From Syntrophorhabdaceae bacterium (GTDB lineage: Bacteria; Desulfobacterota; Syntrophorhabdia; Syntrophorhabdales; Syntrophorhabdaceae), in NCBI GenBank assembly GCA_963665295.1, contig OY762209.1:288001-352000 (forward strand): DNA of 64,000 nt, read 5' to 3'. Below the pieces are notes generated by a model. It had not been told where the DNA came from, searched no databases, and worked only from the letters and a program-made list of their open reading frames with translations. Positions 1,867 to 5,168 of the stretch are shown in pieces; the first letter of the stretch is position 1, and each line of letters starts with the position of its first letter. Position numbers and translations under genes: made by a program.

Positions 1867-1943
1867 TGGGGTGGATGAGGGGATTCGAACCCCCAACCCC
1901 TGGGTCCACAGCCTAGTGCTCTGACCATTGAGCTACACCCACC
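1867..1943 (-). tRNA. tRNA-His (GTG)
   Basis: Reverse complement reads GGTGGGTGTAGCTCAATGGTCAGAGCACTAGGCTGTGGACCCAGGGGTTGGGGGTTCGAATCCCCTCATCCACCCCA. It has the G-1/C73 pair, GTG anticodon, GTTCGAAT T-loop and encoded CCA, with one A-C mismatch in the anticodon stem. Confidence 0.96.
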
Positions 1944-2712: not shown

Positions 2713-2741
2713 TTGACAAGCCTTTGCGCCGTACCTACATT
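2713..2741 (+). promoter_or_regulatory. sigma70-type promoter for the cytochrome/rhodanese unit
   Basis: TTGACA (2713-2718)-N17-TACATT (2736-2741), then GAGGA RBS at 2751-2755 before GTG 2760. Confidence 0.65.
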
Positions 2742-2759
2742 ATCTGATTAGAGGAACCT

Positions 2760-4001
2760 GTGAAAACTGCGCTCATTTCAGCCATTGTCATCGCATTTAC
2801 CACACTGCTCCTTGCTCCGGGAGTCTCCTATGCGGCCACAGGCAGTTGCGTCGCCTGCCACACGGACGAGGCTATGCTCAAATCCCTTTTCAAGCCCGCC
2901 GCCATAGAAGGCGAAGGTGAAGGGTGAGCGGGTCCTCCTCCGCCAGTTAAGGCGGAAGAGATGTACAAGGGCTTTCTCGTTGACAAAAAACTCCTGGCCG
3001 ACGATCCCCATGTCAGCCAGGGATGCATCGCCTGCCACAAGGGCGATGAAAAATCAAAGACCAAAGACGGGGCGCACAAGGGCATGACCTCCCGGCCGTC
3101 GGACAATCCCGCAGTCTGCGCAACCTGCCATGATCAGATTGCGAAGAACTACGGAAAATCCCTCCACTATACCACTGCCGGTCTCAGGACGGGCGTATCG
3201 GGAAGGTTCTCGGAAGCGGAGAAAAAGCTCTTCACCGAAAAGGTATTCGAAAAGTCATGCCGCTCCTGTCACGCCTCATGCGGCGACTGCCACGTCAAGG
3301 TGCCCGCCACCACAGGGGTCAACCCCGGTCTTATAAAGGGTCACGCCTTCGTCAAACGGGACGAGGGTAAGACGTGCGCCATATGCCACGGCGGCAGGGT
3401 CTACCCCGAGTACACGGGTGACTATGGGGGAAGCCCTGACGTCCACTACCAGAAGGGCATGCTTTGCATGGACTGCCACAAGGTGGCCGGGATGCACGGC
3501 AACGGCACGGCCTACGCCTCAAAGCAGGAGGTCAGGGAGAGACCGGCCTGCATCGCCTGTCACAAGAAAGGACAGGAGAAGAGCGAAAAGGCGCGCACTT
3601 CCCACGCAACGCACATGGACAAGGTAAGTTGCCAGGCCTGCCATAGCTCCGCGCCTTACCGGAATTGCTATGACTGCCATATGGGCAAGGGCGCACAATC
3701 CAAGCCCGGGTTCTTCCTCGGCCTCAACCCCCGGAACAAGGGGCAGATCACCACATTGCGCCTCATCCCGGCTGTTCGCGACACATTCAAGAGCGTGGGG
3801 ATCGGGATGGCCCACTTCGACAATCTCCCCAACTATTGGAATACATCGCCCCACAATATAAGGAAGCGTACGGAGCAGACCCGTTCATGCGACGTCTGCC
3901 ACGAGGAAAAGAAGGGATTTCTCACAAAGGAATCACTCGTCAAGGATGGTTCCAAAGCCAATGACAGCTTGATTTTTCTCCCGAAACCGCTCGGGAAGTA
4001 G
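2760..4001 (+). CDS. Periplasmic 11-heme c-type cytochrome, probable selenoprotein (U56; TGA at 2925-2927)
   Basis: The GTG start with RBS gives a signal peptide (MKTALISAIVIAFTTLLLAPGVSYA), CVACH, then EGEGEG-TGA-AGPPPP in frame with the 346-aa ORF 2961-4001 that carries 10 more CxxCH motifs. A SECIS-like hairpin lies at 2935-2960. Confidence 0.82.
2935..2960 (+). promoter_or_regulatory. Putative bacterial SECIS element
   Basis: CTCCTCCGCC-AGTTAA-GGCGGAAGAG pairs 9 of 10 bp. The 6-nt loop has G at its second position and starts 17 nt after the UGA. Confidence 0.7.
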
Positions 4002-4062
4002 AAAAATACAGGGGGTCCCTCCGGCGGCGGGACCCCGAATACATCAAATATGGGAGGGCAAT

Positions 4063-4977
4063 ATGAAGCGCACAAGAATCCTGGTAATGGCATTTGCGAT
4101 CATCTTTCTGGCTGCTCTCGCGGCTCCTGCCCTTGTGGGCGCAAGAGATATAACCCCGATTGTTTCACTCGACTGGCTGGAGAAGAACCTCGGCAACCCC
4201 AAGGTCAGGATAATCGATATCAGGAAGGTGGAGGAGTACAGGGCCGGCCACGTGCCCAACGCCCTCAACGTCTTTTACGGGACCTGGGCCGTAGCGAAAA
4301 AGGGCCTCGCCAACGAACTTCCCGAGGCTGACGACCTTGTGGACGCCATAAGCTCCGCCGGCATAGCCCCTGATTCGTGGGTGATCCTCACAGGCAGCGC
4401 GGACGCCCTTCCCGACAGGATGCGTCTCACCAGGGTAGCCTGGACCCTCGCCTATGCGGGGATTGCCAACGTGGCGATCCTTGACGGCGGATACGGCAAA
4501 TGGGTGGCCGCCAAAAAACCCGTATCGACCGACCTCGTAAGGCCCGTCGCCGCTGCGTTCAAGCCCGACTGGAACAAAAGGCTTCTCGTCGCAAGGGATG
4601 GCCTGATCTCGGATATGGGCAAGGCCATACTGGTGGACGCGAGATTGCCCGATGCCTATTTCGGAGTGACAAAACTCGATATTACGGCCCGTTACGGCCA
4701 CATAAAGTCCGCCCTCTGCCTGCCCTCGGCCTGGCTCTACGGGAAGGACAACACCTTTATCTCCAAGGGCGATCTCGAAGCCATGGCCACGGGCGTGGTG
4801 GGCAACGACAAATCGAAAGAGGTCATCGTGTATTGTGACACCGGCCTCGTGGCGAGCGGGTGGTGGTACGTGCTGAGCGAGGTCCTCGGTTACAAGAACG
4901 TGAGATTATACGACGGCTCCTCCCAGGAATGGGCCAAAGACCCGAACATGCCCATGACCATATTCAGTTGGAAATAG
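4063..4977 (+). CDS. Secreted tandem-domain rhodanese / sulfurtransferase
   Basis: Signal peptide, IIDIR..EY.AGHVPNA, ILDGG, GHIKSA, active-site loop YCDTGLVAS and the C-terminal YDGSSQEW signature. Confidence 0.92.
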   Translation: MKRTRILVMAFAIIFLAALAAPALVGARDITPIVSLDWLEKNLGNPKVRIIDIRKVEEYRAGHVPNALNVFYGTWAVAKKGLANELPEADDLVDAISSAGIAPDSWVILTGSADALPDRMRLTRVAWTLAYAGIANVAILDGGYGKWVAAKKPVSTDLVRPVAAAFKPDWNKRLLVARDGLISDMGKAILVDARLPDAYFGVTKLDITARYGHIKSALCLPSAWLYGKDNTFISKGDLEAMATGVVGNDKSKEVIVYCDTGLVASGWWYVLSEVLGYKNVRLYDGSSQEWAKDPNMPMTIFSWK

Positions 4978-5168
4978 GTTAGCCCATATGCCGGGCGGGC
5001 AACAGGTCCGCCCGGCGCCTTATCCGTTCCGTCCCCTGCCCTCTGCACATATCCAATCCACGGCATTCACCGGGCCACCCGGCATGCTCCCCGTTGGTGC
5101 GCCGCAAAAGGGCCTTGTCCACGGGAAAAGCGCTTCTCTGGAGAAGGATGGCCCTCACGAGCGGGGCA

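Follow-up and report, generated by a model that had tools for sequence, protein, structure and literature searches.

Gene organisation at the locus

The 64,000-nucleotide stretch of DNA analysed here (the window; positions 288,001 to 352,000 of contig OY762209.1 from a Syntrophorhabdaceae bacterium) carries near its start two open reading frames that share one frame on the plus strand, one of 55 residues with a GTG start (2760–2927) and one of 346 residues with an ATG start (2961–4001). When the TGA that ends the first is translated as selenocysteine (Sec, U), 2760–4001 becomes a single protein of 413 residues. Its only U is residue 56, flanked as EGEGEG-U-AGPPPP, and it has 11 CxxCH heme motifs, one before the TGA and ten after it. 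A first-pass annotation, made from the letters alone, had proposed exactly this undecaheme selenoprotein, with a promoter, a ribosome-binding site, the GTG at 2760, a signal peptide and the eleventh motif upstream of the longer frame, and an exported rhodanese as the next gene; all of these were located in the sequence. The observation is thus confirmed and the interpretation supported: the cytochrome is very likely a genuine selenoprotein that current annotation misreads, a member of a large family distinct from MccSep of Geobacter sulfurreducens; it probably acts together with the rhodanese, most likely to reduce sulfur compounds. The features are as follows.

2713–2741, plus strand: sigma-70-like promoter, TTGACA-17-TACATT (a consensus match only, 10 of 12 positions)
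2751–2755, plus strand: putative ribosome-binding site GAGGA, 4 nt 5' of the GTG, read from the sequence
2760–4001, plus strand: predicted undecaheme cytochrome c selenoprotein gene, GTG start, TAG stop, 413 residues, exported; full-length homologues align across the single TGA
2760–2834, plus strand: putative signal peptide, approximately residues 1–25, likely cleaved near SYA/AT, a site placed by eye rather than by a prediction tool
2847–2861, plus strand: heme-1 motif CVACH, C30 to H34, 5' of the TGA; invariant in 57 of 57 family loci
2925–2927, plus strand: predicted UGA codon for Sec, U56, in the Gly-rich loop EGEGEG-U-AG; supported by conservation of the column and by Cys there in distant homologues
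2935–2960, plus strand: SECIS-like (selenocysteine insertion sequence-like) hairpin, 9 of 10 pairs; conserved core 2939–2944 with 2951–2956
3024–3902, plus strand: heme motifs 2–11, C89 to H381, with a predicted OTR-like core fold (from the motifs and a VIA-align comparison with 1sp3_A)
4063–4977, plus strand: gene for an exported two-domain rhodanese of 304 residues (Pfam); orthologues adjoin the cytochrome gene in nearly all Sec-type loci
4834–4836, plus strand: codon of the rhodanese catalytic Cys258, loop YCDTG; invariant in 33 of 33 aligned orthologues

The promoter scan gave two such sites in the region against 1.1 expected. The N-terminus of the protein reads as a signal peptide of the general secretory type, with a lysine at position 2, a hydrophobic run and the sequence SYA/AT. 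AlphaFold2 places a helix at residues 2–18, within the putative signal peptide, and the equivalent N-termini of aligned homologues are also hydrophobic. Because the signal peptide and heme 1 lie 5' of the TGA, the ten-heme part could be neither exported nor matured without read-through. An assembly slip does not explain the TGA: contigs from three public DNA runs (two studies) give it without differences, these runs being possibly the genome's own source.

Conservation of the UGA codon

Homologues were sought by six-frame searches that read through stops. In 61 related genomes there are 28 full-length matches (the present gene included) at 56–100% identity, each with exactly one in-frame TGA, and seven further full-length matches without any stop. 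Across the phylum, matches at E≤1e-30 occur in 44 of 401 genomes; 45 of the 46 matches have exactly one TGA, down to 34% identity, and the sole exception is a fragment that does not reach the TGA site. After removal of duplicates, 57 distinct loci of the phylum remain. In 50 of these (34–65% identity) the TGA falls at a single alignment column, 26–36 residues past heme motif 1, with conservation on both sides, a check that the first-pass annotation had proposed. The Sec-type loci form two deep subfamilies: A, with 37 loci including the present gene, reads EGEG-U-AGAPPSVPAE, and B, with 13 loci, reads KGEG-U-GGxVAPLEPYEK.

The family extends well beyond this phylum. When Cys-type relatives were used to seed a pattern search of species-representative genomes, at least 596 stretches matched; the best 80 loci were examined, and 78 of them could be parsed. 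A TGA is found within GEG-U-GG in 74 of these 78, Cys in two (L096 and L099) and Arg in two. They come from Chloroflexota, Actinomycetota, Calditrichota, KSB1, Planctomycetota, Eisenbacteria, Ignavibacteria, Gemmatimonadota, Bacteroidota and others. A TGA at the same column in more than 120 loci is far beyond chance.

Sixty database proteins have an N-terminal alignment that reaches across the site, and 14 of them have Cys in the Sec column, in motifs such as GEG-C-GG. Other residues occur there too. In the seven non-Sec genes of the related genomes the site holds Pro in six and has no clear equivalent in one, and full-length database proteins at 54–60% identity carry Ala, Arg, Ser or Tyr. Two show Trp, which is probably the output of a gene caller reading TGA as Trp.

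In a quick maximum-likelihood tree of 100 rows (midpoint-rooted, with Shimodaira-Hasegawa-like approximate likelihood ratio test (SH-aLRT) support only, and built without two thirds of the Sec loci from other phyla or one Cys protein that has no tandem motif), clades A and B each have a support of 100. Every non-Sec or Cys row adjoins or nests within Sec rows, and the well-supported branches force at least nine changes of state. The simplest reading is that Sec is old in the family and has given way repeatedly, either to Cys or, with the loss of the Sec-dependent function, to inert residues. The first-pass annotation had counted ordinary residues at this position as evidence against Sec. Such residues are indeed seen, but the genes that carry Pro, Ala, Arg, Ser or Tyr look like secondary losses, because they nest within Sec clades and have neither the hairpin nor the rhodanese, and we therefore reject them as a refutation.

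It is worth adding that a genome of the same genus holds a second copy of the cytochrome gene (G001:C28:17418-18597), in three pieces and with a TAA besides the TGA, which is probably a decaying paralogue.

The SECIS-like hairpin

The arms of the hairpin lie at 2935–2944 and 2951–2960 and form nine of ten possible pairs around the loop AGUUAA (2945–2950), which begins 17 nt past the UGA. This is the hairpin that the first-pass annotation had described, and its homologues show compensatory changes. Three sets of sequences were compared: subfamily A, subfamily B and the other phyla. As a control, the partner strand was slid by 1–3 columns, and shuffled alignments were scored on covariation.

Subfamily A: 37 sequences, 7 bp, 88% of cells paired against 27–56% when slid, 3 compensatory pairs; 15 of 500 shuffles reach the covariation score
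Subfamily B: 13 sequences, 8 bp, 97% of cells paired against 33–52% when slid, 2 compensatory pairs; 0 of 500 shuffles
Other phyla: 74 sequences, 8 bp, 83% of cells paired against 40–51% when slid, compensatory changes at 5 of 8 pairs (31 cells); 0 of 500 shuffles

In all three sets a GU-containing loop lies approximately 20–22 nt past the UGA, despite the different peptides that A and B encode there. The hairpin is weak or absent in the non-Sec paralogues. The corresponding 34-nt stretch, folded as a control, gives −0.2 to −7.2 kcal/mol in six Pro-type paralogues, and −7.3 to −16.9 (mean −11.7) in the 50 Sec loci of the phylum. In the other phyla, the four non-Sec loci give −4.6 to −9.9 kcal/mol, against a mean of −11.5 for the 74 Sec loci.

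Selenocysteine machinery

Decoding of the UGA as Sec presupposes the Sec machinery, and this is present. The genome, a single contig of 5.5 Mb, has a full set, all above curated cut-offs: selB (372 bits), selA (582 bits), two copies of selD, and a tRNA-Sec (68.7 bits) with anticodon TCA. The occurrence of selB does not discriminate between genomes with and without the cytochrome, being present in four of five holders and in five of five non-holders of the same order.

The second selD copy (L011, G000:C1:5230927-5231841), which lies outside the window, scores 359 bits and has one in-frame TGA, while the first has none; it probably encodes a Sec-containing SelD.

The rhodanese partner

The neighbouring protein of 304 residues has its own signal peptide and two stretches matching the Pfam Rhodanese domain (PF00581; E 5.6e-31), with the catalytic Cys258 in the C-terminal domain, and is thus a tandem rhodanese. 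The pairing recurs: a rhodanese is adjacent to the cytochrome (46 loci) or fused to it (one, L051) in 47 of the 50 Sec-type loci of the phylum. It mostly lies downstream, and upstream in L063 and L068. Of the other three, two end at a contig edge and the third, L053, has a superoxide dismutase gene in its place. A rhodanese match is found in none of the seven non-Sec paralogue loci, three of which have short flanks on one side.

Fusions occur in both orders. In L051 (G019:C60) the rhodanese is C-terminal, and in the database protein P0143 a rhodanese-domain end with its active-site loop precedes the cytochrome. In the other phyla, a rhodanese lies within 2.5 kb in 61 of the 78 loci, these being 60 of 74 Sec-type, one of two Arg-type and neither of two Cys-type. 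Pfam scans of the neighbours found a protein with two, four or six rhodanese domains beside 14 of 15 sampled Sec-type loci from the other phyla, and none beside the Cys-type L096 or the Arg-type L101. The partnership is thus near-obligatory, sometimes takes the form of a fusion, and goes together with Sec.

The rhodanese is the only conserved neighbour. Genes for sigma-54 and LysR regulators, for a small TPR protein and for additional multiheme cytochromes were seen nearby, as was, in a single case, a cytochrome b561 gene. The last is in L104, a metagenome-assembled genome of Anaerolineae, where a cytochrome b561 (Ni_hydr_CYTB) plus PSCyt1 gene (491–2041) stands just 5' of the rhodanese–cytochrome pair; it is a candidate membrane electron donor, present at this one sampled locus only.

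Some individual loci merit a mention. In L053 (G009:C13) the gene that follows the cytochrome encodes an Fe/Mn superoxide dismutase, and only a rhodanese-like remnant of 31 residues is present. In L057 (G035:C69) the downstream rhodanese gene is split over two frames, by a frameshift or an assembly error. The subfamily B loci L076, L078 and L079 have a LysR-type regulator gene upstream and, past the rhodanese, an open reading frame whose N-terminus, judged by eye, looks like a metallophosphatase/5'-nucleotidase (SoxB/UshA-like).

Protein family and fold

Pfam identifies only generic multiheme domains in the cytochrome. No NCBIfam model (release of June 2026) reaches its cut-off; the best scores, approximately 45 bits, are to ExtN, ExtO and DmsE-type models with cut-offs near 200, and six relatives from other phyla likewise have no match above cut-off. 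The models for known selenoprotein cytochromes were considered individually. NF040886, for MccSep/ExtKL (cut-off 250 bits), has no match to the cytochrome at E≤0.01 and none in the whole genome at E≤0.001, in agreement with the earlier suggestion that this is a different family from ExtKL. TIGR04315, for OTR (cut-off 375 bits), has no match to the cytochrome at E≤0.01 and gives 18.9 bits on one relative. NF041027 (the GSU2204-family CXXCH selenoprotein) is absent from the NCBIfam matches of the cytochrome. NF049953 ('hypothetical protein DG', with a GUxG motif) has no match in the genome, a weak blank since control genomes are silent too. A sequence search of solved structures returned only heme-motif matches, to NrfB (E 7e-4) and octaheme nitrite reductases. 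On these sequence comparisons, the family appears distinct from any described one.

AlphaFold2, run on an alignment of 63 sequences, generated a model with a mean predicted local distance difference test score (pLDDT) of 85.4 and a predicted template modelling score of 0.79. Foldseek found nothing at E≤0.001, its best row being 1sp3 (E 0.034, template modelling (TM) score 0.36). VIA-align also placed 1sp3_A first, with Z 9.5 and a root-mean-square deviation of 4.2 over 254 aligned residues, within residues 81–413 of the model. As this Z stands well above that of the next row (4.7), the ten-heme core may be said to resemble the 1sp3 enzyme, an octaheme cytochrome of Shewanella oneidensis known as a tetrathionate reductase (OTR). 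The model would thus suggest that the signal peptide, heme 1 and the Sec loop form a module added to an OTR-like ten-heme core.

Outside the heme motifs, nine His residues are invariant or nearly so (H84, H106, H136, H195, H229, H246, H282, H285 and H365), and Met234 is near-invariant. Since these nine His and Met234 serve eleven hemes, at least one heme would be without the usual sixth ligand, a feature of multiheme enzymes that are catalytic. In the family alignment, Cys is conserved only within the heme motifs, and no Lys is invariant.

Relation to known systems

The closest parallel is MccSep of G. sulfurreducens (ExtKL, GSU2937-2936), described in PMC13510729 as a Sec-containing multiheme polysulfide reductase that also reduces selenite. 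In the working model given there, a mobile Sec loop and a heme-bound Cys together cleave polysulfide. The first-pass annotation had also used the label MHSEP for the Geobacter protein; this label was not found in the papers searched, and the name used in that paper is MccSep. The two systems are alike in many respects. Both are periplasmic multiheme cytochromes c with one Sec at an in-frame UGA, split by annotation, and both have a SECIS-like hairpin just 3' of the UGA and a Sec beside Gly on a mobile loop, this last feature being a predicted one here. Cys forms arise inside Sec clades in each family. Each also has ties to sulfur chemistry and to a rhodanese, the MccSep cluster containing the rhodanese-like ExtH. 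The two also differ. MccSep is described as having five hemes, against 11 here, and its Sec as residue 325, on a D-G-U-P loop of a C-terminal Ig-like domain, whereas the present Sec site is near the N-terminus and separates heme 1 from heme 2. The two proteins show no sequence relation that could be detected (NF040886 is silent), the predicted OTR-like fold is unlike that of MccSep, and, unlike in MccSep, the rhodanese is an immediate and near-obligatory neighbour, sometimes fused.

A similar logic is found in Wolinella succinogenes, where Sud, a periplasmic polysulfide-sulfur transferase (rhodanese), feeds the polysulfide reductase Psr. There too a periplasmic rhodanese-type carrier passes sulfane sulfur to a respiratory reductase, as we propose here, but Psr is a molybdopterin enzyme and not a multiheme selenoprotein.

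OTR of S. oneidensis (1sp3) is the best structural match to residues 81–413, and the present protein, like OTR, would be a multiheme enzyme that reduces sulfur compounds. OTR has eight hemes against 11 and does not have the N-terminal module of heme 1 and Sec loop. It has a Lys-ligated heme, and the present family has no invariant Lys to match. Some members of the OTR family TIGR04315 are annotated as selenoproteins in Table 1 of PMC13188914.

TsdA and SoxAX, His/Cys-heme enzymes named in PMC13510729 that work oxidatively, are likewise c-type cytochromes with sulfur chemistry at a chalcogen residue beside or on a heme. They differ in being diheme, in having Cys rather than Sec and in acting on thiosulfate, and no homology to them was seen in the sequence search of solved structures.

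Proposed mechanism and alternatives

On the basis of the conserved UGA, the conserved hairpin, the Cys homologues and the Sec machinery, it is highly probable that the UGA at 2925–2927 is read as Sec and that the selenoprotein is real. A functional coupling of the cytochrome to the rhodanese is also probable, if somewhat less secure, and for the reduction of sulfane sulfur as its main role we would give about even chances. As a whole, the explanation that we favour, by a modest preference, is a Sec-containing undecaheme cytochrome that reduces sulfane sulfur delivered by the rhodanese.

The mechanism could be as follows. SelB and tRNA-Sec would decode the UGA as Sec, directed by the hairpin at 2935–2960. 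The product would be exported by means of its signal peptide, and its 11 c-type hemes attached in the periplasm. Sec56 would lie where the heme-1 module joins the OTR-like ten-heme core, on a loop that is rich in Gly and flexible. The periplasmic rhodanese, predicted to be co-transcribed, would draw sulfane sulfur from polysulfide, thiosulfate or elemental sulfur, carry it as a Cys258 persulfide and present it to Sec56, which would attack this persulfide, or else attack the substrate directly. The resulting Se–S adduct would be reduced at a heme without a distal His, with electrons supplied through the heme chain, and sulfide released. What we infer here is which compound is the substrate, which way the reaction runs, and that the rhodanese passes sulfane sulfur or selenium to the Sec.

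Several observations weigh against this picture. The nearest non-Sec relatives carry Pro, Ala, Arg, Ser or Tyr and not Cys, and the Sec residue would therefore be dispensable for keeping the protein. One of the five sampled holders (G400, 95% complete, in 220 contigs) has no selB at E≤1e-60. No rhodanese match lies within 2.5 kb of 14 of the 74 Sec-type loci from other phyla, several with short flanks, or near either of the Cys-type loci for which DNA is at hand (L096 and L099). The Sec loop is poorly modelled, with a pLDDT of 52 for residues 51–60. There is no gene for a quinol dehydrogenase or other electron donor beside the pair in the present genome. Finally, MccSep is described as having a conserved heme-ligating Cys, and the present family has none outside its heme motifs.

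It is possible, although we consider it unlikely, that the selenoprotein and its coupling to the rhodanese are real and the reaction is another one. Selenite or tellurite could be reduced, tetrathionate or thiosulfate could be reduced as such, or sulfide or thiosulfate could be oxidised, with the electrons entering the heme chain. The best structural match is to an octaheme cytochrome known as a tetrathionate reductase, and rhodaneses are well established as acting on thiosulfate. There are weak NCBIfam matches to ExtM, ExtN and ExtO of the selenite/tellurite operons (approximately 45 bits against cut-offs of 200–800), but they fall on generic heme-motif stretches. MccSep reduces selenite as well, and the His/Cys-heme enzymes TsdA and SoxAX work oxidatively, according to PMC13510729. 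Against an oxidative direction, many of the holders are, to judge from the names that their sources give them, fermentative or syntrophic anaerobes, and to such organisms an electron sink would seem more useful than an oxidase.

More doubtful is a role for Sec56 as an axial heme ligand. The resulting His/Sec heme would be to selenium what the His/Cys hemes found in TsdA, SoxAX and MccSep are to sulfur, and catalysis would take place on the ligand. The shortfall of ligands is in its favour, with nine invariant distal His and a near-invariant Met234 for 11 hemes, as is the occurrence of Cys in place of Sec in some relatives; His/Cys hemes are given as typical of sulfur-converting cytochromes in PMC13510729, and the Sec loop was modelled, poorly, without hemes. 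On the other side, close paralogues tolerate Pro or Ala at the site, and the Gly-rich loop with its run of prolines would appear to resemble a mobile arm more than a ligand. In a speculative form of this idea, to which we give the same low weight, Sec56 would be the sixth ligand of one of the two hemes without a conserved distal His, take sulfur from the rhodanese and be reduced in place. If true, this would be the first natural His/Sec-ligated heme, and the enzyme would represent a widespread molybdenum-free sulfur-respiring class in a dozen phyla.

Read-through of the UGA without Sec, by near-cognate insertion of Trp or Arg or under a reassigned code, is very improbable. It could be drawn from the W at the site in the database proteins P0025, P0030 and P0143, but W is the letter that a gene caller using a TGA=Trp table would give; the holders span many phyla with the standard code, there is only one such TGA per gene, and Sec insertion agrees with the Cys homologues, with the machinery in the genome and with the conserved hairpin. 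That the TGA is a true stop, giving two genes (a 55-residue monoheme peptide and a 346-residue protein) or a dead gene, is scarcely credible: gene callers do annotate it so, and the two pieces are recorded separately, but the downstream piece would have ten heme motifs without a signal peptide, many orthologues lack a start codon around the position of M68, the in-frame TGA stands at one column in more than 120 loci, down to 34% identity and always with the hairpin, and some full-length homologues have a sense codon there.

Distribution and annotation

The family is large, with the at least 596 matching stretches in species-representative genomes noted above and 1,928 protein clusters at E≤1e-40. 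Its holders include Desulfobacterota-type syntrophs, Chloroflexota, Actinomycetota, Calditrichota, Planctomycetota and others. As the first-pass annotation had foreseen, the standard pipelines split the gene. Public protein sets contain truncated proteins of approximately 346 residues (A) or 365 residues (B), named 'hypothetical protein' or 'cytochrome c3 family protein', and the 55-residue leader is on record as a separate database entry. Because gene callers cut the gene at the UGA, the databases hold a protein without a signal peptide under these names, and metabolic reconstructions of the anaerobes concerned miss both a selenoprotein and a probable sulfur-compound reductase. A useful rule for annotators would be to look for G-E-G-TGA-[GA]-G with a hairpin after it. 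The name 'thiosulfate/3-mercaptopyruvate sulfurtransferase' is given by one source to several truncated members (P0067, P0122, P0274, P0295 and others), probably by carry-over from fused or neighbouring rhodaneses.

A full-text literature search, judged from titles and the beginnings of abstracts and conducted outside subscription journals and preprint supplements, found no description of an 11-heme Sec cytochrome; an earlier one may exist there. A 2026 review of prokaryotic selenoproteomes covers 119 families, and the only cytochromes in its Table 1 are ExtKL (NF040886), GSU2204 (NF041027) and OTR (TIGR04315) (PMC13188914). None of these three matches the present protein. MccSep, characterised in 2026, explained sulfur respiration in Geobacter (PMC13510729); the present proteins would form another family of multiheme cytochromes with Sec, unrelated to it and apparently far more widespread. 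Its near-obligatory rhodanese and the natural fusions provide a testable hypothesis of a molybdenum-free route of sulfur reduction.

Other genes around the locus

The cytochrome–rhodanese pair is flanked by a tRNA-His gene (1867–1942, minus strand) and by a convergent gene for a B12-binding radical SAM (S-adenosylmethionine) protein. Between the rhodanese and the radical SAM genes, a perfect 9-bp inverted repeat, GCCGGGCGG ... CCGCCCGGC, was noticed by eye at 4991–5017. The terminator scan passed over this repeat for want of a T-run after it; both genes may use it as a transcription stop. Beyond it, the minus strand between 5169 and 11826 of the window encodes unrelated proteins: the B12-binding radical SAM protein, an MFS transporter, a NUDIX protein, two methyltransferases, a Sua5/YrdC protein and an amidohydrolase.

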